From: Eledone cirrhosa
Lineage: Eukaryota
Direction: 5' to 3'
DNA: 64,000 bases
NCBI GenBank assembly: GCA_964016885.1
Contig: OZ024743.1
Span: 109,926,001-109,990,000 of the forward strand
Position numbers and translations under genes: made by a program. The notes under the pieces were generated by a model. That model had not been told where the DNA came from. It saw nothing but the letters and a program-made list of their open reading frames with translations, and did not search any database. Positions 5,156 to 60,601 of the stretch are shown here, in pieces; within the stretch, counting starts at the first letter, position 1; each line of letters opens with the position of its first letter.

Positions 5156-6600
5156 GAAGTGTGTGGGGACAGAGTTCAAAAGGTGTGTAGGGGAGTGGTG
5201 GAGAGACATATAGCGAAAGGAAACGGTGCGAATGAAAAAAACAAATAAAGATAAAAAATAAAAATAAAGCATGATCAAAATACAAGGAATAAGAAAATTT
5301 AAAAATAAAGGCATGATCAAAATAAACTGAAATTAAAAGGGGGGTAAACAGGTGGTGGAAGGGTGTGGGGTGAGTAGGGGTGGTGGCGGGTGGAGTGGGG
5401 AGAGGGAGACGGGGTGTCCGAGCGGGGAGGGATGAAGGTGGTGTGTGTGTAGGTGTGCGTGCGTGTGTGTGTGTATGTGAAAGTAAGGGTTGCGGGAAAA
5501 ACGGGGTTGCATGTTCAGGAAGGGGTGTGTGTGGGGGGTGTTTTTGTGGGTCGGAGTGTCTGTGCGTGTGTGGATAGGGGGGTGGGTCGAGGGAAATCTG
5601 GAGGCTGAGGGTGTAAATATCTGGTGGGAAGCACGTGTGTGTGGGGTTTAAGCGTGTTGTGGGTGTGGGTGGCGTGTGGAGAAAAAAATTGTTTTGGGGT
5701 GTGTGTGTGGGTGAGTTATATAGGTGATGACGTAAGAGGATGGTTGAAAAGTTGGTAAGTTCCAAGGATGTTAGGAGGATTGCTTATAAGTCAATTTCTG
5801 CGTGTGGGTAATCCATGAAGCGGTGGTCGGAAGAGGAGAGATGTGGGCTAAGCGCGCAACAGGAAGTGGTCAGCAGTGGGAGTGCTGTGGTCTGTTGGTG
5901 CTGGGAGGTGGTCAGAAGGGCATAGCAGCAGTCGGTAGAATGGTAGGGGGCGAGGATGGGTAGGTGTGAATGTTGGAGTGAGGAGGGTGTGTGTGTGTAT
6001 TAGTAGGGGTGTTAGTGGGATGAGTGAGTATGGAGCGAGCGTGTGGGTGGAGTAGGGAGAGAAGGGTGTGTGTGGTTCTATGGAGGGAGTGTGGTGTACT
6101 GGTGTGTGTGTAGTTTGATGAAGAGTTGTTAGTGAGTGTTAGTATCGGGAGGAGGGGAGGTGTTGAATGCAGGTGTGAGTGGGGGTTAGTGGTGGTAGGG
6201 TGTGTAGAGTGGTGGTGTACGAGGGTGTGTGGGTACGTGTGCGTAGGGTTGGGGGTGTTAGTGATGTTAGTTGCGTGTGGGGTGGGTGGTGTAAGTGGGT
6301 GCGTGTGTTCATGTGCTTGGGGTTACGGCGTGTTAGTGAGGTTAGTTGCGGGGTGGTGGGATGGAGGTGTGGGGGTGAGAGGTGTGGGGGTGAGGGTTAG
6401 TGGTGGTAGTAGGGTGTGTGTTTAGTGTGAGCGCGTGTATATATGTGCCGGTGGGTGTGTGCGTGTGATAAGGAGGGGGGGAGGAGGGAAGGGATGTTAG
6501 TATGTTAGTTGGGGAAGGGTGGTCAGAAGAGTGGTGGAGTGGAGGTGTTAGTATTGTTAGTGTGGGGTGGGCGGTGAAAAGGAGGGGTGTGTGAGTGGTG

Positions 6601-8614
6601 TTAGTGGGGGATGAGTGTGTGGGAGGGGGGCGGTCGAACGCTAAAGGAATAAGGGGGGGGGAGTTCAGGTCGGGGGGAGTGTGGGTCTGTAAGATGAAGA
6701 TAGTTCGTTGTTCGACCGTAAGGCGATGGGCGGGTGTTCCGTGGCACTGGAGTAGGCCACAGACTGTGAGATGGCGTGCGGAGTGTCCAGGGCCACCAAA
6801 GTGGCGGGCGATGGGGGAACTGCCCCCGAGACGAATATCCCGGAGGTTCTCCGTGACTCAGTCCGCCAGGCGACGTCCCGTCTGTCCGACATAAGACGCG
6901 AAGTCCGTAGACTAGGTTGGAGGAGGTGCAGCGGAAGGCATGCCGGACCGAGAGAGAGTGGCCGTTGGGACCCTGGAAGGTGGTGGTGTTGGGGATGTGG
7001 GGACAGGTGTTGCAGCGGGGCATAGAACAGGGAAAGGAACCGGGGGGGGGGGGCAGAGCGTGGGTTGGGGGCTAGGGAGCTGTGGACGAGGAGGGTGCGG
7101 AGATTGCGTGCGCGTTTGAAGGAGGGGAGTGGTGGGGTTGGAAAGATGTGGGAGGTGGAGGGGTCGGACTGGAGGCGTCGGAAGAGGCGGCGGATGGTGC
7201 GGTTGAGGGGTAAGGTGGAGGGGTGGTAGGTGATGGGGAAGGGGAGACGGTGGGTGGGTGTGCAGTGGCGTGGGGTGAGGGTGGTGGAGCGGGGGACAGC
7301 ACGGGCGCGGGTGAGAGCGGTGTAGACGAGAGAGGGGGGGTAACCTCTGCGGATGAAATGGCTGACTAGGGAAAGGGCTTGGGACTCGAAGTCAGCATCA
7401 CGGCTACAGAGGCGGCGGATCCTGAGAAATTGGGAGTAGGGAATGGAGTGTTTAGTGTAGGTGGGGTGGGAAGAGGTGAAGTCGAGATAAGAGTGGGAGT
7501 CCGTGGGTTTGAAGAAGGCGGAGGTGACGAGGGATTGGTGGGAGGGGTCGAAGGCGACGGAGATGTCTAAGAAGTGGACGTGGGTGGTGGAGATAGAGGT
7601 GGTGAAGTGGAGGGAGGTGTGGAAGGAGCAGAAGAAGGAGAGAAAGGAGTAGAGCTGTTCTCGGGTGAGGGTCGTGGCTCCGATACAGTCGTCAATGTAA
7701 CGACCGTACAGTTCGGGCGTGGGGCCGGCGTACTGGGCAAAGATTTGGGCCTCAACATGGCCAACAAAAAGGTTGGCATAGTTCGGGCCCATTCTTGTGC
7801 CCATGGCTACCCCCGTGACCTGTTGGTAAAACTCACGCGAGAAGGAGAAACAATTTAGGGTGAGGACCAGCTCGGCGAGGCGAAGGATGGTGGGGGTGGA
7901 GGGAATGGGGGAGGGGCGAATGTCGAGGTAGTGTTTGAGGGCGCGAAGACCGTCGGCGTGGGGGATGACTGTATAGAGGGACTTGATGTCTAGGGTGAAG
8001 AGGAAGGGCTGTGGGCCGGGAAGGTAGGTGAAGGAGTCGAAAAGGCGCAGCGCGTGGTTGGTGTCGGAGATGTGGGAGGGGAGGGTGGTGACAAGGGGGG
8101 TGAGGAGGGCGTCTAGAAAGGCGGAGATGAGTTCGGTGGGGCAGTTGCAAGCGGAGACGATGGGGCGGCCGGGGTTGTCGGGTTTGTGGAGTTTGGGGAG
8201 GAAGTAGATGGTGGGGGTGCGGGGGGTGCGGACGATGAGGTGGCAAGCGGTGGGGGGAGGAGGGAGGAGGCGATAAGGTCTTTGATGGTGGAGGAGACTT
8301 GTTGTTGGTAGAGGGGGGTGGGATCGGAGGGTAGAGGGCGGTAAAAGAGGGGGTTACAGAGCTGCTTGAGGGCTTCGGCCGTGTAGAGGTCCGCGCGCCA
8401 TATCACTACGGCGCCTCCCTTGTCCGCCGGTTTGATGACGATGTCATCTCGGCTACGGAGGGAGCGGAGAGCGAGGAGTTCGCCCCGTGAGATATTGTGC
8501 CGTTTGGAACGGTGGCGGAAGTCGAAACAATTTACTGCGCTACGGCTGGCATCGACGAAGGCGTCCAGGGTGCTAAATTGCCCTGGGGCCGGCGTCCAAG
8601 AAGATTGTCGTCGA
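6601..8614 (-). pseudogene. Frameshifted PLE RT/GIY-YIG polyprotein
   Basis: IKPADKGGAVVIW, PKLHKP..PGRPIVS, MGTRMGPNYANLFV, YGRYIDD, KPTDSHSYL..SSHP, IPYSQFLRIRRLCS, RCNTC zinc linker, NLVY...YVGQT. Confidence 0.92.
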
Positions 8615-8635
8615 TATATATATATATATATATAT

Positions 8636-8853
8636 TGGTAAAAGGAAAAGAAAATGCTGACAAATTGTTCCCAGTTAAAAATAGTTTAATTAGGAATAAG
8701 TAAAAATTAGTAATAAGTATTGGTTAGTATTCAGTTTTGGTTTTAAGTTTTTACCGGTTACGCATTTCTAATGCTTTTCAAAAATAATTTTGAGATAGAG
8801 CGCCCGAGATGTTTGCTCTAATCTGATTAGAGCAAACATCACGGGCGCTCTAT
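8636..8853. repeat. Short copy of the 27771-28529 fold-back family, with its own hairpin
   Basis: Homologous to 27771-27975; ends in the hairpin ATAGAGCGCCCG..GCTCTAATC-T-GATTAGAGC..CGGGCGCTCTAT. Confidence 0.8.
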
Positions 8854-18665: not shown

Positions 18666-19172
18666 GTAAATAAGTATACGTACATACATATATTTATACA
18701 GACGTACAGTAGTATGTATATTCATACATACACACATGTATATATATATATATATATATGTACGTATGGGTTTACCTAACATTTATTAACATGCTCGGTT
18801 TGTTTGTAAACAAACAGCCCAAATTATTAGCCGTACAGTGTTCGGCAACCATCGTTGCCCTATTTGTTCAACACTGACAAAGGAACGATGAACTAGTTTC
18901 TAGCTTATTAGCCATCATCAGCACCGTATACCTTCCTGTCAGTTGATTGAACGTTTGAAAGTATATACTTTCCTTGTGCATATTAACTGTTGAGCAGCCT
19001 AATTTGCATATCGAGTGACTTAGTCGGCCGGTCGTACGGAACACGATAAATGGAAAAAATGAAATTTCATTTCTCACTCTTAGTTCGGCTAATGCATAAA
19101 TGTAAGTATATATACGTACATACATATATGTATACAGACATACAGTAGTATGTATATACATACATACATGCG

Positions 19173-33357: not shown

Positions 33358-36511
<3,154 letters not shown>

Positions 36512-37692: not shown

Positions 37693-38607
37693 TTTATTAC
37701 TGAGAAAAATATATTGTTTTACAGAGAGAGGTTAAAAACCGTTGGAAGATAATATATAACTTAAAAGAATTTGAAAATTAACGAAGAGAAAAATTTAAGA
37801 ATAATGTTAAATTAAGGTTTGTATATTGAAGGGTTTAATAATATGTGCGATGAAAAGTAATTGTTAATATGTATTAAGAATAATATTAAGTTAAGGTTTG
37901 AATATTAAAGGGTTTAATAATATGTGCGATGGAAAAAAATTGTTGATATGTATTATTAAAAATAAAAATAGTAATGTACTTAAGGATATATTGTGAAAAG
38001 AAGTAGAAGAGTGGATGAATTATGAATTTAGAGGAATTAGTTAGTGTTTAAGTATGTTTTTATGTAAAGTGATATGTATGTGTAATATATAAATAGTTTG
38101 TTTACAAATGAGCGCAGAAAGAAAAGAAGGAGATAGTGTTTAAGGAGAAGACTTTAACACCAAAATATGTATGTTTATGACGTATTTCCTAATGGTAATA
38201 ATATAATGTAATAAAGGAGATTAGTTAGGGTTTAAGTTTGTTTTTATGTGTTGTGATGTGTAAGTTAGACGGGCATGTAAGAGAGAGAAAAATAATGAAA
38301 AAATATGTTTATGTTTGCGAAGGATTTTTCAAGGTGATACTATAAAGTATTTAAAAGGGTAATAGTAAGTGTTATGGCTAGTGATAGGATGGAAGAAGGA
38401 AGATCGGATATATTTCTGTGAGTAATAATGAGAATTGAGAAGTATCTAGGAAGAAAGTGTACAGATTAGACGTTAGAAATTAAAATAAATCTGGAAAAAA
38501 GGAAGAAAGGGAAGTGATAAATAGGAATGATATAGATTGGGTAACTAGTATTATATAATGTATAATAAATAACATTGAAATAGGGTAGAAAGATGGGTAT
38601 ATTTTAA

Positions 38608-38807: not shown

Positions 38808-40420
38808 TTATCTGTATACTTTATGGAATCCTCTGTGGAATTTATGAAAGCAGAGAGAAAACAAGTCAATGCGTCTATTTATTATATAATCTAAATTAGA
38901 TATAATGGTAAATTTCTCACATAAACAGAGATTAGATGTCTTGGATAGAGAGGCATTCAAGTATGGAGAGGCAGAACAAACTTTCCTCCAAGAGATGTTA
39001 TAGTTAATATTTTTGTCTTTCAAGGACCATATGAGTTCTGAGAGTGCCGTGTTGGTTCTTTTAAGTTGGTATTTAAAAGAGGAATGATGATTATAAAGAC
39101 GAGTTTAAAGGAGTTGGAAGTGGAGCCAAAATAGGTAAAGGAATTGGTGTCAATTATAACTTTACATTCATATATTAAGTTTTTCTCAAGACAATGATTG
39201 TTGAGAGGACATTTATTTTTAACAGGGCAATTACAATTGCGATTAGAGAAATTAACAGAGTTATTAACAAGTGACCTAGTGTTATCTATAGGAGGAATTG
39301 GATTGGAGAAGTTATTTACGATAGGAATAATAATTTCTTGATTTAGTTTGGGATTAAGAACATTTAACGAAGTTGCGTTTGACGTTGTATTTGGGTTTGC
39401 AGAAATTAGCCTAGAGTTAACAATGACGTCGGGAGTGATATTACTATTATTATGATATTCAGTGTTGGAAGGAAGAGATTTAGTATTTAGTATTTTATTG
39501 TTGTGTTTATAGATAATGTTGGAGATGTTGGAGGAGGTCGAATAGGAACATTTTATAGTGTGTTTGTTAAATATTTTACTATAGATATGTGAGGGAGGGA
39601 AGCATTTATTTAAGGCACTAAAAATAATTTAGGAATATTATTATTAATAGAGATGTGGAAAGGAGAATTATACCAGATTATGCTTTTGTATCTAGGTCTT
39701 TTATTAAAGTTATTGGAATGACCATGATTAATTATTTTACTGTAAGAGCTTCTAGGATTTGTTTCTTTACTGTATTTGATTTTATCAGGATAACCGGCTT
39801 TAGAAAGCGCGTTATTATAGTAATTGGCGTTAGCATCAAAGATGTTTTTATTAGATGTTAGGTTGGATATTCTTTTTCCAATATTACTGACTATAGCATT
39901 CTTAATATTAGTGGGGTGGTTAGATTTAAAATTAACATAATTTAGATTCTCATTGTTTTTATGGTAAGGGTAATATAGGCCAGTGTCAAGATTAAGAGAT
40001 ACATCCAAGAAGTTAGCTAGTTTTATGTTGTTATCAAATTCAATGTTTAAGTTATGTTGGTTAAAGAGATTACGTATATTGTTCTTAATAATATTAAGGT
40101 TAACTATGTTGCAATTTAAGATAGTAAAATGTCCATCGTCACGATGAATTCCACCGCGAAGTTGAGGAATTTTGCGAATCAAAGAGTTCAAAATAAAGAT
40201 ACCAATTAAATCTGTCAATTGGGATGATTCAGATTCACCCATTGTGATGTCAAAGTTGTTAGAGGTATCAGCTCTGGTCCAATATTCATTGTTGAACTCT
40301 AGGATGGTTTTACGTGCGGTGAGAATTATGTGAAGTTCATCTATGGTAATGTCTGAATATTTGTAAGCGAAAAGATAGAGCATTGTTGAGAAGTGAGGGC
40401 GAAATAGAAGAATAGTAGCT
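38808..40420 (-). pseudogene. Frameshifted Naiad-type RT/GIY-YIG ORF
   Basis: FDITMG..SQLTDLIG, GIHRDDG, NFLDVSLNL, YHK..YVN.KSNHP, CNC...CPL..CL..LIY, NLCLCEK...C.H. Confidence 0.9.
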
Positions 40421-41363
40421 GGCAATATCAAATAAAACTTATTATTACCCTTTATATACTTTATAGTATCACCTTGAAAAATCTTTCGCAAACATAAACA
40501 TTTTTTTTGACGTTAGATTATTCATCCTCAATTCATTAATTTTTTCTCCCTTTCATTCTCGTCTAACTTACATATCACAACATATAAAAACAAACTTAAA
40601 CCCTAACTAATCTCCTTTATTACATTATATTATTACCATTAGGAAATACTTCATAAACATACATAGTTTGATGTTAAAGTCTTCTCCTTAAACACTATCT
40701 CCCTCTTTGCTTTCTGCGCTCATTTGTAAACAAACTATTTATATATTACACATACATATTACTTTACATAAAAACATACTTAAACGCTAACTAATTCCTC
40801 TAAATTCATAATTCATCCACTCCTCTACTTCTTTTCACAATATATCCTTAATTACATTACTATTTTTATTGTTAATAATACGTATCAACAATTTCTTTCC
40901 CTCGCACATATATTAAACCCTTCAATATTCAAAGCTTAACTAAATGTTATTCTTAATACATATTAACAATTTCTTTTCATCGCACATATTATTAAACCCT
41001 TCAATATACAAACCTTAATTTAACATTATTCTTAAATTTTTCTCTTCGTTAATTTTCAAATTCTTTTAATTTATATATTATCTTCCAACGGATTTTAACC
41101 TCTCTATGTAAAACAATATATTTTTCTCAAGTATAATAGCTATCTCTCTCTCTCTCTCTATCACCCATCTCTCGTCCTATCTCATCCTTCCTTATTATAC
41201 TCCTCCCCCTCCATTATTTACTCTCATCTCCTCCTCTTTTTCATCCTTTCCACCCCCCTCATTTTTTTCCCAATATCACACATCAATCTAAAACTACTTT
41301 TCATATGTTGATTTAAAACTGCACTATTCACTAGTGTTTTTTAACCTTCATATCATGTCTCCC

Positions 41364-41426: not shown

Positions 41427-41974
41427 TATATTATTTATACTCTAGTCCTACAAATTGTAGAGTGCTACTTATCCGAATCTACATTGCTCTTATATATACA
41501 TGAATATAATGATATATGTGCCTGTGCGTTTGTGTGTGTATTCATAATAAATGTATCTATATATTTACACATATATGATGCGTATGTATGTATATATTTG
41601 CATGTTCAGTTACTTCTGAATCCGCTTTTCAATCTGTATTGATTTCTGGCTGCATGTGGGTGGAAGCATTCCTACATTTATTGTTATCTGTTATTGGCGT
41701 ATTGTTGTGATAGGTGTAGATGACCTCTCATTATTAATATTGTAAGCATGTTAGAGGATCCAATATAGTGACATGCTCGTCATCTAGTGACCACACTACA
41801 CCTGCTGCTGGCATATCATACATATTTCACCTGCTCAACATATTATAATTATAGAATTGTTATATAATGAGAAAGATCAGATAAACGCGTGTGTTTATTA
41901 CTTCCTGCCAGTATAATAGTAAACTTATACATTCACCCACGCACTCAATTATATATATATATATATATATATAT

Positions 41975-43282
<1,308 letters not shown>

Positions 43283-43499
43283 CGTATATAGAAGCACATA
43301 TATGCATATATATAAACTGCACCACACACACATATATCAATATATATATATATATGTACATATTTATTTATTTATTTATATATCTATAACTATATGTGTA
43401 CACTGATATATATATATACATATATATATATAGAATATCCCGATAAGGGTGAAAGCAGCGATTATTTGCTTAAATTTAATATGTTATTTTAATAAATAA

Positions 43500-43614
<115 letters not shown>

Positions 43615-44468
43615 CTTAAAAGAAATAGGAATTTCACTTCAAGAATAGCTTTATACAATATGTATAAATATTTCGTATCTCCAAATAAATACGGTTTTAA
43701 GAAGCCGTAGCTATGTAAACACAGTGGGCTAACGTCATTTGGTGATGTCCAGCAGAAGCAAGTGGGACAAACGTCTATGCATTTCAGGCTTAACTGGCCT
43801 TCGTCAGGGCGGTCCCGCCCACCTCTGGCGACTGCTGGACTAGAAGACAGGCTGGAATATATAGATATCTCATCTGTGTATTCATCTCATTTGCATATGA
43901 AGCTGCATAAGTTGGCTCAACTTATAATAAAAAAGAAATAGTATTTCGCTTCAAGCATAGTATATATTCTCGCCTGTCTTCTAGTCCAGTAGTCGCAAGC
44001 GGTGGGAGGGACCGTCCTGACGAAGGCCAGTTAAGCCTGAAATGCATAGACAGTTGTCTCCCTTATTTCTGCTGGACATCACCAGAGGCCGTTAGCCCAC
44101 CGGTGTTTTCATAGCGGCTTCCTAAAACCTTATTTCTTTGGAGATACGAAATATTTATACATATTGTATAAAGCTATGCTTGAAGCGAAATACTATTTCT
44201 TTTTTTATTATAAGTTGAGCCAACTTATGCAGCTTCATATGCAAATGAGATTAATGACCTCATTTACACAGACAAGAAAAATATACATGTTCGCCTGTCC
44301 TCTAGTCCAGCAGTCGCAAGCGGTGAGAGGGACCGTCCTGACGAAGGCCAGTTAAGCCTGAAAATCATAGACGATTGTCTCCCTTGCTTCTGCTGGACAT
44401 CACCCCGGTGTTTGCATAGCTACGGCTTCCTAAAACCGTATGTCTTTGGAGATACGAAATATTTATAC

Positions 44469-44470
<2 letters not shown>
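43615..44470. mobile_element. Retrozyme-like array, family I: 321 bp unit, one inverted plus tandem copies
   Basis: HHRs at 43772-43811 (-), 44013-44052 (+) and 44334-44373 (+): CGTC-CTGACGA-AGGC CAGTTAA GCCT-GAAA-TGCA-TA-GAC. Octamers at 43889 and 44239. Confidence 0.9.
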
Positions 44471-44526
<56 letters not shown>

Positions 44527-45194
44527 TAATAGGGATATATATGTATAAATTTATACATAGTCACAGATACATATAGGAGTGTGGCCACATTCCACGGAGT
44601 GGCTCATTGAAAACATTAATTAAGCAAATAATTATAAATCAGAGCTATATAAAATTGTAAGTTTGAAGAACAGTCCTTTCAGCAACCAACCTACATGCCA
44701 TCCAGCTGCCATTCACAACCTTCCATTTTGACCACTAGCCACGTAATAGTTCTTACCCATTTTGAATTCATTTCTGGCGGCGATCATTGTTACAATTTTA
44801 GTCTTAACTGAGGTGTCTCTTGAGAAGCTCGAAACCTCATGGATAATACCGGGTTGGACATATCAACAAAGTACGAGCGAACCTATCTAGTCGGGACTAG
44901 AAGAATTTTGGTAAGATTTATATACATTTTTCTTTCCAAACTTACATTTTGACTTAGCCCCGCTTAATTGATTATTTGTCTAGTTAATTTCTACAGGCGA
45001 AGAAGACTGATCAGGTAATTTTTATCTGACTGTTCCTCGCGGAGGACTATCTGTGTCATTTATCTGTTATTTCTTCGAAGTTACATCTTAAACTTAGGTC
45101 CGTTTAAATGATTATTTATCTACTTAATTTCTACGGACTAGGGAGAAGACAAGTTGGGTATATTTTACCTGACTGTTCTTCAAACTTACAATTT

Positions 45195-45298
<104 letters not shown>

Positions 45299-45777
45299 TA
45301 TATGTATATATATATATATATATACATGAATATAATTATATATGTGTCTGTGCGTTTGTGTGTGTATTCATAATAAATGTATGTATACATTTACACATAT
45401 ATGCTGCGGATGTATATATATATTTGCATGTTCAGTTACTTCTGAATCCGCTTTTCAATCTGTATTGTTTTCTGGCTGGATGTGGGTGGAAGCATTCCTA
45501 CATTTATTGTTATCTGTTATTGGCGTATTGTTGTGATAGGTGTAGATGACCTCTCATTATTAATATTGTAAGCATGTTAGAGGATCCAATATAGTGACAT
45601 GCTCGTCATCTAGTGACCACACTACACCTGCTGCTGGCATATCATACATATTTCACCTGTTCAACATTTTATAATTATAGAATTGTTATATAATGAGAAA
45701 GATCATATAAACGCGTGTGTTCGTTAATTCCTGCCAGTATAATAGTAAGCTTATACATTCACCCACGCACTCTATTA

Positions 45778-45852
<75 letters not shown>

Positions 45853-46074
45853 GCGTATATACGTATATAGAAGCACAAATATGCATATATATAAACTGCA
45901 CCACACACACATATATAAATATATATATATATATATACATATTTATTTAGTTATTTATATATCTATAACTATATTTGTACACTGATATATCTATATATAT
46001 ATATATATAGAATATCCCGATAAGGGTGAAAGCAGCGATTATTTGCTTAAATTTAATGTTATTTTAATAAATAA

Positions 46075-46126
<52 letters not shown>

Positions 46127-46536
46127 CCTGGAGAGATGACCCCTTAGCGTTTGTCAAGGCAGAATTCTAGGAGAAGGAAAACTCTGATATAACACCTGCA
46201 ACTCTGATGGTATCCAATGATGTTGACTTGTTCTTCTTTTTGGTAAATATCATCTTGGTTAAGAGAGTGGGACTGGCTTTGTGCAGTACCTTTACTCACT
46301 ATAAAAGCTTCACGGCACAGGCATTGCTTTATATCTGGAGATCTCTCTGCACTTGTCGTCACATGGTACCATGGGCACAGCACTATGTGCCAATAATTGT
46401 CACAAGTGTATTGTTTGTACCAGAGCTTTCAAGTCGCTGGCTGGACTAAACAGTCACACTTGTTTAGCGTATCGGTAGGGTTTCTCCTACATGGATGTAA
46501 AGTAGTGACCGTACTCGAAAACGAGTTGGCAGCCAC

Positions 46537-46540
<4 letters not shown>
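46127..46540 (+). mobile_element. Bipartite non-autonomous RTE derivative
   Basis: RTE 5' motif TAGGAGAAGGAAAACTCTGA joined to an RTE-type terminal zinc finger, CIVCTRAFKSLAGLNSH. Confidence 0.6.
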
Positions 46541-46587
<47 letters not shown>

Positions 46588-46593
<6 letters not shown>

Positions 46594-47776
46594 ATACTTT
46601 GGGAGGGTCATGTTGCCAATAAGAAACACATGCACCAGTTGCTTTCACTTCAATTTAATTTAATATATATTTATAAATTTACAAATTTATAAATTTCTGG
46701 TTGGTTGGTTGGTTCCACAACCAGATAGTTGTTTATATATATATAGTCATAGTTCTTTCGTCACACACTCTGTGACCTCTTCAGTGACTGGGGATTTCTT
46801 TCTTCGTTTCTGTGCCTTTCCTTTCTTCTATCCTACGCCATTTTGTTTGTGTGTGGGTTGCGTGCTCAGTTTGCGCATGCGCCACATCCGGGTGTCTGTG
46901 TGTGTTTGTGTTCATTTTTCTATTTTTCTATTTATATTTGTTTGTTTATTTATTTATTTATTGTTGGTTGGTTGTTTGTTCTATGTGTGTGTGTGTTTTC
47001 ATTTTGTCTTGTGTGTGTTTTCATTTTGTGTGTGTTTTCAATTGTAAGTTGTTTATATATGTGTGTGTGTGTTTTCATTTTGTCCTTAATTGTAAGTTGT
47101 GATGTTGCTGTTCCACTCATATTTTCTATTTAATTTTGGTTTTAATTCTTTTATGCTTACTGCCTCTGTAATTTGCCTAAACATTGCGTCTTTCTTGTGT
47201 GTGGATTCTATTTTTATTTCTATGCTCTCTAATTTACCCCTGTGTTCTATCTTAGCATGTTGGTAGAGCACAGATGATTCTTTACTATCTTGGAGGTCTC
47301 GCCAGTGTTCATTTATTCGTTCCCCTATACTACGAGCTGTCTCACCTATGTACACTATATTTTTGTTTCTACATTGTCCCTCAGTACATCTTATGCTATA
47401 TACTACATTTCTAGTTTTACAGTTAATATGGGGGCTTATTTTACAGGTTATACATTTCTTATCTATACATGAGGGTCTTTGGAACGGGTATGTCTTGCTA
47501 ATAAGTGTTTTTACGGAGGTACCAGGTCTTTCTACTATCTTAATATTGAGATTATGTTTCTTTAGGGCCCTTCTAAATTTGTAGGCTAGTTCACCTCTAG
47601 GGGTTGTATTGATTGTATTAAATTGAAGTTGTATTAAATTGAAGTTGTATTAAATTGAAGTGAAAGCAACTGGTGCATGTGTTTCTTATTGGCAACATGA
47701 CCCTCCCAAAGTATAACAATATCGGTTTCAACACACGATTTCAGATAAAGAATCTTGCTAAACAAATTCAGAAACG

Positions 47777-47778
<2 letters not shown>
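46588..47778 (-). mobile_element. PLE family J: GIY-YIG 3' part, UTR, HHR and inverted tail
   Basis: Open frame ~47086-47615. HHR at 46745-46789 (AGTCA-CTGAAGA-G GTCAC..GTGAC-GAAA-GAAC-TA-TGACT). 46588-46660 is inverted at 47650-47721. Confidence 0.88.
47086..47615 (-). CDS. PLE GIY-YIG endonuclease domain (5'-truncated; frame extends beyond the listed ORF)
   Basis: TPRGEL..VERPG..CIDKKCITC..NCKTRNVVY..C..C..VYIGETARS..ER..EH..RQITEA..LNRKYEW. Confidence 0.8.
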
Positions 47779-47821
<43 letters not shown>

Positions 47822-47825
<4 letters not shown>

Positions 47826-48128
47826 AAAGAAATAGGAATTTCACTTCAAGAATAGCTTTATACAATATGTATAAATATTTCGTATCTCTAAATAAATACG
47901 GTTTTAAGAAGCCGTAGCTATGTAAACACAGTGGGCTAACGTCCTTTGGTGATGTCCAGCAGAAGCAAGGGGGACAACCGTCTATGCATTTCAGGCTTAA
48001 CTGGCCTTCTTCAGGGCGGTCCCGCCGACCTCTTGAGACTGCTGGACTTGAATACAGGCGAGAATATATAGATATCTCGTCTGTGTATTAATCTCATTTG
48101 CATATGAAGCTGCATAAGTTGGCTCAAC
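47822..48128 (-). mobile_element. Family I retrozyme-like unit (duplicated copy)
   Basis: HHR at 47979-48018 (CTGAAGA core); octamer at 48096-48103. Confidence 0.85.
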
Positions 48129-48130
48129 TA

Positions 48131-48198
<68 letters not shown>

Positions 48199-54163: not shown

Positions 54164-54199
54164 AACAATCACACACACATACACATATATATATATATA

Positions 54200-55080
54200 T
54201 TATTATACTTTGGGAGGGTCATGATATCAATACAATCACACGCACTTGTTGGTTGGTTCGATAACCGGAAGGTTGTTTATATATTGTCAAAGCTCTTTCG
54301 AAAAACATTGTGTGACCTCCTCATTGACTAGGATTTTACTTTGAATATCTTGTTTGTTCTGTCCTATACCATCTTGTTTGTGTGTGCTTATATTGCGCAT
54401 GGCTTATATACTTGTGTGTCTGTGTGTATGCGTGTTTATTTATTTATTTATGTGTTTATTTATTTGTTGCATGTTGGTTGGCTGTTCCATCTGTGCGTAT
54501 CTGATTCATTTTCTTAGTTTGGTTTCTGTGCGTGTAAGACAAATCACAGAGGCGACAACCTATAGACGAACTCCAAACAAAATTAAACAGAAAATATGAG
54601 TGGAATAGCAACATCACAATTAGTAATTAAGGATAAAATGAAGACATACAGACACCTACAAATCCAAACTATCAAAACAAATAAGACACACACAGAACAA
54701 ACAACCAGCTAGTGACAAGTAAATAAACACATGAAAAAAAATAAATAAAAACACAGACACGCGGATGTTAAGCATACGCAAACTAAGCCCTCAACACACA
54801 AACAAAACAAGATGGTGTACGACAGAACAAATGACAGACAAAAAAAAAAAACCTAGTCACTGAGGGGGTCAGAGAATATGTGAGAAAAGAGCTTTGACAA
54901 TTCATAAGCATTCTTCCGGTTATAGAACCAGCCAACCAACTGGAAATTTATTGTAAATTGAAGTTAAAACCAATATGTGAGTGGGTTTTTATTGGCAGCG
55001 TGATCTTCGCAAAGTATACCAATATATGTTACAATACACGTTCAGATAAAAAATCTTGCAAAACAAATTCAAAACAAAAT
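54200..55080. mobile_element. PLE family J, diverged tail-to-tail copy
   Basis: Central RQITEA remnant; degenerate HHRs at ~54286-54329 (-) and ~54855-54899 (+). Confidence 0.75.
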
Positions 55081-57537: not shown

Positions 57538-58775
<1,238 letters not shown>

Positions 58776-58821
58776 TATATATATATATTTATATATATAT
58801 ATATATATATATATAAATGTA

Positions 58822-59019: not shown

Positions 59020-60601
59020 TATATGAAAGTCTGGAAAGTTTTTTGGTTGAAAATAAAATTAAAAAAATTAAAAATAAAATTACAAAGAATCAGTCCGGAG
59101 ACTTGTACTTATGTAATAGATGTTTGGTGACGTGTGGACAACGTGTGAAACATTCACTTCTCGTCTTTAGGCAATCACTATTGCCTAATCTCTTTAGGAT
59201 ATTTATTCGTTCGTCAATACGTAAGCCATACGTCGGATTTCCCCTTGCGTATGGCTTGGACTTAGTGATGGGTTTCCATTGAATGGAGTACCGTATACTT
59301 GAGTCCTTGAGGGATCATACGTGACTCGCGAGTTTCGTGGATGAACGTCTGTCCGGTTATCTGAAGGTAGACTGGTGGTTCAGGAAACTATCCTTGAATC
59401 GGCCCTCCTCGATGCCCACATAGGATTTGACTTCCTGTGGTTCGTTTGGTCGGTTGGAAGTGACCACAGCTTCATAGATTACAGCTGGAGTGTTGCATTG
59501 TTGTAGAAGGGGACAAGCTTCAGGCTTATGGCAAGAGCACCCTGGTGGGGTGTTGCTCCTAGGGCTGCTGGTGATGTGGCCTTCATTTTCTTAGCGCAGG
59601 AGTATCCTAGTTTAACATTGTGTCGGTTAAAGATGGAGTGGCATGTATGACCTATGGGGAAGTGTCTATCTAAGAGGGCTAGACATTTTTTTTCCGACAT
59701 TCGTTTTACCGTTGAGTGAGAAGGGAGGAGAGAACAAGATAGTTTGTCTATTGATGCGCTTACTTTTTTTAATGGTGTTGTTGCTAGTGGGAGAGTAGGT
59801 GATAGGTTGTGAGAAGCCGCTGTTAGCCAACGCCGTGTTATAGTAGGGTGCCGCCCTGTCAAATATAGCCTTATTAGAGGAGAGGTTTGAGATTCTTGTA
59901 CTGATATTCTTAACGAAGTTTCTAAAAACAGTGGGATGGTGCATGAGTCCTTGTGAATGTAATTATGGAGCGTTTCCTGAACCACCAGTCTACCTTCAGA
60001 TACCCGGACATACGTTCATCCACGAAACTCGCGAGCCACGTATGGTCCCTAAAGGACTCAAGTATAGGGCACTCCATTCAATGAAAAGCCATCACTAAGT
60101 CCAAGCCATACGCAAGGGGATATCCGATTGTGGCTTATGTATTGACGAACGAATAACTATCCAAAAGAGATTACGCAATAGTGATTGCCTAAACACGAGA
60201 AATGAATTTTTCACAAGTTGTCCACACGTCACCAAACATCTATTACATAACTACAAGGCCCGGACTGATTGTTTGTAATTTTATTTAAAAATTTGTTATT
60301 TTATTTTCAACCAAAAACTTTCTGGTCTTTCGCAGTTATCTCCCTTACCCCCCCCCCACCCCCACACACACACATACGCAGTCTACTATTGCCTGTGTGA
60401 AGTGACCGAGTTTCTGCGCATGCGCGTTCGTACGGTTGTCCTTCTTGTTCCTATAACCATATTCATCCCGAGCTGAAGTTCCGCGAAGGTGAAACAATTG
60501 TTCTCGGTATGGTGAACTAACTGTTGTGTAACCAGGTCTATCTAACTCGTCCCTTGGACTGAGTGCTCTAACACTACGGATATTACCTTCCAGTGTTCCA
60601 C

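Follow-up and report, generated by a model that had tools for sequence, protein, structure and literature searches.

A mutated copy of a dispersed hammerhead repeat in a (TA)n tract of Eledone cirrhosa, with insertion ends resembling those of Penelope-like elements

Two hammerhead motifs on one strand, 321 nt apart, raise the question whether positions 43615-44470 of the DNA analysed here, a stretch of 64,000 nucleotides from Eledone cirrhosa (the window), release a linear or circular RNA of that length, as an earlier note had proposed. The locus was compared with its relatives in the genome (3.0 Gb searched). With good confidence, it is read here as one mutated copy, likely inactive, of a hammerhead repeat that is dispersed and has no open reading frame; the enzyme of a Penelope-like element (PLE) likely inserted it into a (TA)n microsatellite. 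Positions in the repeat unit are given as q-numbers, which are counted along L003 (minus strand), a natural unit close to the family majority with 322 nt and a junction of 2 nt; q1 corresponds to window positions 43970 and 44291, and the predicted cut to q79.

Structure of the locus and form of the hammerheads

The two plus-strand hammerheads of the earlier note were recovered with CUGACGA cores at 44017 and 44338 and AUA triplets ending at 44048 and 44369, as was the inverted upstream copy on the minus strand (core 43807-43801, triplet ending 43776). A relaxed hammerhead scan of the window returned eight hammerhead-like matches, including both plus-strand triplets, and passed over the inverted copy because its second stem I pair is mismatched. 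The claim that coding capacity is lacking was borne out, since the longest ATG frame within 43615-44470 has 59 aa. The locus is built of two head-to-head arms (Table 1), which overlap by 2 nt at 43959-43960. The direct arm departs from the family majority by about 4% substitutions and by an internal deletion in its second copy, the inverted arm by about 7%. Target-site duplications are illegible because the flanks are (TA)n.

Table 1. Features of the locus and of related insertions in the window
Feature	Position	Strand	Remarks
Left (TA)n-rich flank, likely target	43064..43614	.	from sequence
Inverted arm	43618..43960	-	q209-322, q3-238; head-to-head with direct arm
Inverted arm, 3' end			long site B, about 40 nt past site A ('tail'), continuing into (TA)n
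Inverted-arm hammerhead	43770..43813	-	core 43807-43801; predicted cut after 43776
Inverted-arm U6-type upstream element	43886..43897	-	distance to own TATA 10 nt shorter
Direct arm, about 1.6 units	43959..44472	+	q~312 through q322, q1-322, q1-199
Direct arm, 3' end		+	short site A, continuing into (TA)n
TATA box ahead of hammerhead 1	43960..43969	+	upstream element absent; direct arm begins here
Hammerhead 1	44011..44054	+	canonical type I; core 44017-44023, helix II 4 bp, palindromic helix III; predicted cut after 44048
Cut-to-cut unit, 321 nt	44049..44369	+	ends meet in stem I, branched hairpins between (predicted fold)
T7 run at site B	44200..44206	+	between the two hammerhead cores; would be a Pol III terminator
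U6-type upstream element, then mutated TATA box	44238..44289	+	between both hammerheads; 12/12 letters as in host U6 gene L140
Hammerhead 2	44332..44375	+	predicted cut after 44369; helix III palindrome gone (ATCA)
Right (TA)n-rich flank, likely target	44459..44559	.	from sequence
Two-armed insertions of the coding GIY-YIG PLE family	46586-47777, 54197-55074, 57662-58776		Pfam GIY-YIG match in 46586-47777
Second window copy of inverted arm	47823..48132	-	inside local segmental duplication

The second window copy of the inverted arm has 12 variants in common with it, of 16 and 18, and is classed as a product of the segmental duplication, flanks included, and not as a separate insertion. The duplication pairs window positions 41501-43925 with 45327-48132 at 95-96% identity, and its halves differ in repeats sitting inside (TA)n tracts. 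Within the first 35 nt of the inverted arm a private change is common to the direct arm, and the remainder of the arm agrees with the duplicate. This mixed sharing of variants may point to assembly of the locus in two steps or to conversion close to its axis.

The hammerhead motif consists of a helix I of 6 bp with a bulge and a distal helix, a helix II of 4 bp with a 7-nt loop, and a helix III of 2 bp which closes on a palindromic loop. By these dimensions it is a canonical metazoan type I hammerhead, for which a helix I of 6 bp, a helix II of 4 bp, a helix III of 1-2 bp and a palindromic loop are given in the cited part of PMC4209133. The term 'minimal' used in the earlier note was dropped: the same part of that source describes minimal hammerheads with a helix II of 7-8 bp, a helix I of 4-5 bp, an unpaired base before helix II and a scant or absent helix III, whereas the present motif has a 4-bp helix II, a 6-bp helix I, no unpaired base and a 2-bp helix III. 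The bulged distal helix I and the 7-nt loop 2 are candidate parts of a loop 1/loop 2 contact. The G10.1-C11.1 pair, called highly conserved in canonical type I motifs (PMC4209133, part cited), is A-U in 8/8 rows of the family and G-C in 8/8 rows of an older sister subfamily. Between the two groups, three of the four helix II pairs and two of the six helix I pairs have changed on both sides (16 rows); this covariation is regarded as essentially one subfamily split with few independent events.

Nor can the hammerheads of the locus be called 'clean'. Stem I is mismatched in all three copies, with a C.A mismatch at pair 4 in hammerhead 1, a C.A mismatch at pair 5 in hammerhead 2 and mismatches at pairs 2 and 5 in the inverted-arm copy. 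The helix III palindrome TGCA is kept at 44048 and in the inverted copy and has become ATCA at 44369. That TGCA prevails was confirmed beyond these two of three copies by 53 of 59 hammerhead copies from loci selected by their tail, of which 12 were fully intact and 43 had an intact core. Rfam searching gave no hammerhead match at the gathering score, nor at E<=5; a match to a miRNA model at 43790-44034 (56 bits; cut-off 200) was rejected as a reflection of the inverted repeat only. Isolated motifs of 68-71 nt folded no better than shuffles (z -0.77 to +0.98). Other hammerhead-like cores of the window, with a long helix II, lie at 41432 (+), 61196 (-), 60813 (-), 49401 (+) and 4352 (-); those at 41432 and 61196 look like one further family.

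Layout of the repeat family and its relation to Penelope-like elements

The unit gave 2085 first-look candidates genome-wide, of which 40 were scored. Exact genomic matches numbered 141 for a 55-nt hammerhead stretch and 737 for a 25-nt tail stretch, and reversed controls gave 0. A set of 170 distinct loci was formed from 89 loci found via the 55-mer, 59 via the 25-mer (the tail-selected set) and the 22 best full-length or array loci; the 148 loci of the first two groups were chosen without regard to length. Twelve duplicate loci had been removed before layouts were counted, and L108 (G000:C1:381878500-381880000), which consists of six alternating arms with a duplicated two-armed block, was removed before stop positions were counted. 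The unit has about 324 bases and no ORF. Divergence from the majority has a median of 3.6% and a minimum of 1.0% (96 segments), so that the burst of the family is past. The older sister subfamily (L111-L139; L004:2195-2537) gave 3275 first-look candidates genome-wide. It has a unit of about 340 nt, likewise ORF-less in the loci examined, with an AUC triplet, G-C at the base of helix II, a T5 run 3' of the hammerhead in place of the T6 run at site B, and similar ends; its promoter region is as in the family.

Among the 170 loci, 108 are head-to-head, with an inverted 5'-truncated arm, 61 are single-armed and 1 is complex. Two sites account for the termini of 237/283 arms, namely site A (q189-205, centred at q~199) and site B (q225-246, centred at q~238-242), about 40 nt apart. 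These canonical ends adjoin a microsatellite in 194 of 237 cases, and head-to-head pairs lie mostly in (TA)n. In the 73 pairs with two canonical ends the tail stands at one end only in 68 (A/B), the others being A/A (4) and B/B (1; p 1.5e-15); the present locus is an A/B pair. At least one non-canonical end was found in 35 of the 108 head-to-head loci. Partial tandems predominate, arrays of 3 and 10 units are present, and same-strand hammerhead pairs occur in 4 of the 59 tail-selected loci.

The two arms of an insertion are taken to derive from one source. At q172 the minor allele was common to both arms in 13 pairs and discordant in 1, of 133 (expected 2.0 and 28.9), and rare variants were shared at 9.5% between arms, 11.6% within an arm and 1.5% between loci. 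A search of sequencing runs listed four with the repeat, all from one study and none of them RNA, which is no evidence for or against expression. In the contigs of these runs, sites A and B were seen as loose ends that enter (TA)n, together with go-back joints of unit length; the contigs were not counted as independent support because they possibly come from the same sample as the assembly.

The same layout is known from PLEs, whose insertions carry an inverted 5'-truncated copy and a tail of 30-40 bp, often at one end only (PMC8557442, part cited). In vitro, the tail is the stretch between two internal start sites of the reverse transcriptase (RT), cutting and extension take place on both strands, and the substrate is chiefly uncut RNA (PMC11167929, part cited). 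The inverted truncated arm, the one-end tail and the microsatellite target make it likely that the family behaves as a non-autonomous element mobilised by Penelope enzymes. An autonomous PLE was rejected as a reading of the unit, from which an RT plus GIY-YIG ORF between terminal repeats (pLTRs) is absent. The coding GIY-YIG PLE family of the genome likewise has two ends, accounting for 16 and 14 of 34 ends (24 loci) and lying about 54 nt apart. Comparison of the unit with this family, which is abundant in the window and was the sole one compared, gave no significant sequence match, and the mobiliser is thus inferred from its footprints. A parent PLE was also sought at 29 further loci of the older subfamily, where the ORF listing contained no attached PLE ORF.

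Several observations were made on the PLEs themselves. The coding GIY-YIG family is young (1854 first-look candidates; 97-99% identity over a 201-nt probe among the best 40) and has a CxxC motif upstream, a hammerhead-like motif of its own and a tail of about 54 nt. Further PLE-like fragments of the window lie at 6342-8685 (-), 33416-34786 (+), 39020-40512 (-) and 59479-60015 (-), and two of these fragment families gave RVT_1 and GIY-YIG matches below the Pfam cut-off. Around the fragment at 39020-40512, tandem dimers of 79 bp stand in opposite orientation at 37795-37955 and 40876-41035.

Promoter motifs, dimer folds and the template of reverse transcription

The stretch q241-322 is the best kept between the two subfamilies (80/82 majority letters). 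It contains a 12-nt element, which we take to resemble the octamer motif, and a TATA box 42 nt further downstream (45-47 nt in U6). In host U6 genes the element stands at -77 to -79 and the TATA box at -31. Of the 6 U6 loci tested, 4 are preceded by both motifs (at 3 independent places), as is the top U6atac locus. The element was absent from the other two U6 matches, from two U2 loci and from RNase P, where the absence is weak as the model start may be misplaced; from seven other U6atac matches, some with (TA)n flanks, which are probably retrocopies; and from the 3' 1070 nt of the coding GIY-YIG PLE family. The element with its TATA spacing was found in 0/20000 shuffles, in a motif-plus-spacing test set up after the match had been seen. 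By local alignment of whole U6 upstream regions with the unit, the 12-nt match was no better than 34/300 shuffles. The U6 genes form a tandem array at G000:C19:31.78-31.84 Mb (spacing about 1.8 kb) and the U2 genes another at G000:C3:307.35-307.45 Mb (about 2.2 kb); upstream of U2 a TATA-like box lies near -35 and the U6 element is absent. The same element and TATA spacing also occur in a second, unrelated hammerhead family of the window (41973-43071 and 18752-19065), a 467-bp tandem on the minus strand with an inverted arm at 42929-43071; its cores are CUGAUGC (window copy) and CUGAUGA (18891 copy).

The start predicted from these motifs is q22 by the TATA box and q25-27 by the element, which lies 79-80 nt before q28 (77-79 nt in U6). 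The 5' ends of arms heap at q27-40, where 27 ends fall, compared with 28 over the following 50 nt (p 8e-6; assembled loci), and the edge of the heap is sharp (13 at q27-31, 2 at q22-26); in the tail-selected set alone the heap was not significant (6 against 8, p 0.065). The TATA-to-heap distance is 37 nt against 31 nt in U6. An intact promoter precedes one hammerhead core in 64 of the 148 loci chosen without regard to length and two cores in none of them, so that unit-length RNA could arise from the family's own promoter only via rare copies such as L014, L018 and L106, in which two cores do follow an intact promoter. The T6 run that falls at site B, present in 45/51 read-through copies, equals some host U6 terminators in length; 76 of 201 arms reach upstream beyond the T6 run of the previous unit, which would be awkward for Pol III.

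Folds were calculated for 12 of 21 natural dimers, the other nine being left out because core or spacing was mutated. Hammerhead spacing in these dimers ranges from 321 to 334 nt; the unit length of 321 nt given in the earlier note holds for the locus and not as a family figure. The double-hammerhead fold lay 0.9-6.5 kcal/mol above the ensemble in 10/12 dimers, and two single hammerheads lay 13.8-26.1 kcal/mol above it in 12/12. According to these predictions there is roughly an even chance that intact family dimers would self-cleave as double hammerheads and might end as a unit-length circle. With cleavage as a prediction, the family is placed as a new member of the known non-LTR retrozymes, and to this extent the dimeric cleavage and retrozyme assignment proposed for the locus were retained; cleavage of the locus dimer itself, at a cost of 12.8 kcal/mol (second worst of the 12), was not.

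In the preferred reading, rare long master copies would be transcribed from the internal promoter with a start near q25-28. A Penelope-type ribonucleoprotein would nick both strands of a microsatellite and prime cDNA from each side, one cDNA at site A and the other at site B, on the same source RNA. Both cDNAs would pass uncut hammerheads, stop early and become joined head-to-head. As the template, a linear read-through RNA that stays uncut and spans about two units appears more likely than a monomer circle, with roughly an even chance for the former, a lesser one for the latter and the rest mixed. Only tentatively, the whole cycle may be put as follows. The family would be a PLE parasite driven by a U6-type promoter, with an uncut linear RNA with two hammerheads, made from its own promoter, as template in place of a circle. 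A dimeric PLE enzyme would prime at both tail-bounding sites from opposite sides of one break and could carry PLE and retrozyme RNA in one event. Nearly all new copies would be unable to transcribe a dimer, so that only rare long copies would be masters.

The classical cycle is a possibility to be held just as tentatively. According to it, masters are cut by double hammerheads and ligated to a circle of about 324 nt, round which two PLE reverse transcriptases run; element and mobiliser are unchanged, and the template alone differs. The hammerhead site is crossed by 201/244 arms, and 5' ends do not heap at the predicted cut (2/62 and 1/21 arms), from which it follows that templates were uncut or religated, the latter as a circle predicts. 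The circle is also favoured by the double-hammerhead fold of most dimers, by the pairing of the unit ends in stem I, by the sharing of variants across passes (16-18%, against 22% within a pass), and by the circular retrozyme RNAs found in vivo in coral, mussel and axolotl (PMC7229834, part cited). Against it stand the stops at q27-40, which were found in 8/10 arms on the second pass and in 16/168 on the first (p 1.3e-6; p 6e-5 when set against the local baseline), and the finding that 0/201 arms of the sets not chosen by length enter the body of a third unit. Together these suggest that the template was a linear RNA which began at the promoter and covered about 1.65 units.

Both observations have to be read with others. 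The second-pass stop rate climbs throughout, from 0.5 to 1.5 per 100 nt, and the spike at q27-40 is a similar multiple of the baseline in both passes; a real 5' end and a stall in the G-rich strand of stem I, set on a climbing baseline, account for this equally well. Of the 22 loci picked for full length or as arrays, 7 or 8 continue into a third unit, and the direct arm of the present locus starts about 40 nt upstream of q28. The sole long array, L106 (G000:C2:83920635-83923934), with ten hammerheads, repeats one internal deletion at a distance of about 1560 bp and was thus grown at least partly by DNA duplication, which speaks against the circle, as does the cleavage in vitro of only 1/9 Xenopus dimers (10.64898/2026.07.22.740005, part cited). 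Pass-specific variants that would mark a dimer master with unlike units were sought and not found. A scar of RNA editing was likewise sought, with no sense A-to-G excess (7.6 against 12.4 per 1000 for T-to-C). The idea that the tail holds the start of a relic ORF was rejected, as the longest open stretch around the unit, 87 codons, gave no support. With a candidate promoter, a predicted start site and three candidate master loci (L014, L018, L106) at hand, circle and linear template are directly testable.

That the locus itself yields a linear or circular RNA of 321 nt is very unlikely, and the corresponding claim of the earlier note is not supported. The two hammerheads, 321 nt apart, have kept their catalytic cores and triplets, a host gene could provide the transcript by read-through, and three proximal helix III pairs persist for the 44369 site in the dimer fold. 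The fold of the locus dimer, with the penalty given above, has two helix III and two stem I mismatches, and its helix III duplex has +0.9 against -4.7 kcal/mol. A promoter element was sought on the sense strand upstream of hammerhead 1 and not found, the TATA box before hammerhead 2 is mutated, and the T7 run lies between the cores. A 321-nt product would thus need transcription from outside and two impaired cuts, and the models leave little room for a unit-length circle from 43615-44470. The cut-to-cut unit folds at -79.1 kcal/mol (z -2.08; 4/100 shuffles as good). Ligation of the cut ends would restore the genomic sequence over the cut site, so that junction reads are non-discriminating.

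Slightly less probable still is the view that the copies are severed pLTRs of one autonomous PLE family and no self-standing mobile element. Their layout and tail are PLE-like, pLTRs and retrozymes are related in Xenopus (10.64898/2026.07.22.740005, part cited), and PLE coding matches lie outside the unit in 19 of the 170 loci, four of which (L004, L100, L254, L190) have an arm fused to a 5'-truncated PLE ORF, in sense and upstream in the first three and as the opposite arm in L190. L029 adjoins a PLE in the other orientation and was left out of this count. No PLE coding match was found on the far side of the four fusions, which involve three PLE families with differing breakpoints; nested insertion with deletion is an alternative for them. 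This diversity tells against a single parent family, as do the 130/201 arms that run from the unit start into the end of the previous unit without an intervening ORF, and the older subfamily, which has the same ORF-less unit in the loci examined. A miniature inverted-repeat DNA transposon or a locally amplified satellite with an incidental hammerhead, suggested by the inverted pair in (TA)n and its partial local duplication, is largely refuted by the systematically unlike outer ends (68/73), the variable inner junctions, the 61 single-armed loci and the covarying hammerhead helices.

Comparison with known systems

The preferred reading makes the locus an ordinary decayed repeat copy, and the family is useful as a fossil record. 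A search of the literature on cephalopod hammerheads, retrozyme promoters and non-autonomous PLEs, with subscription journals and bioRxiv supplements outside its scope, returned nothing on this family, nor on retrozymes with tail-type ends. Metazoan non-LTR retrozymes are defined by a type I hammerhead per unit, head-to-tail units of 150-450 bp and the lack of an ORF, and further by the lack of PBS and PPT, by long target-site duplications where there are any, by dimers that cleave themselves, and by unit-length RNA in linear and circular form (PMC7229834, part cited). The present family agrees with them, as far as the cited parts describe them (PMC7229834; 10.64898/2026.07.22.740005), in its unit of 321-334 nt, which has no ORF and a single canonical type I hammerhead, its short palindromic helix III, its predicted dimeric cleavage and the abundance of PLEs in the same genome. 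It differs in layout, since the known retrozymes form tandem arrays and the copies described here are mostly dispersed two-armed insertions of less than two units; cleavage and circles are predictions for this family. Mobilisation by PLEs is proposed in the retrozyme papers, where the sections cited (PMC7229834; 10.64898/2026.07.22.740005) argue for the link from homology and co-occurrence only and do not contain the tail-type ends and the promoter described here. The footprints and the composite insertions tie the retrozyme to the Penelope machinery.

With PLEs (PMC8557442 and PMC11167929, parts cited) the family has in common a partial tandem with an inverted 5'-truncated arm, a tail of about 40 nt at one end, microsatellite targets, and a hammerhead upstream of both RT start sites. 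Unlike them, it has no RT/GIY-YIG ORF, its hammerhead is canonical and not minimal, and it has no match to the one coding family tested. Hammerhead repeats with an internal promoter are also known from newt and Schistosoma (PMC2220036 and PMC6765202, parts cited): satellite 2 of the newt has an internal promoter of snRNA type, reported as Pol II, and the SINE-like repeats of Schistosoma are transcribed by Pol III, only from a copy with an upstream neighbour. The present family resembles both in combining a hammerhead repeat with a putative internal promoter, and differs in that its motifs, known from sequence, match the upstream element and TATA box of the host's own U6 and U6atac genes.
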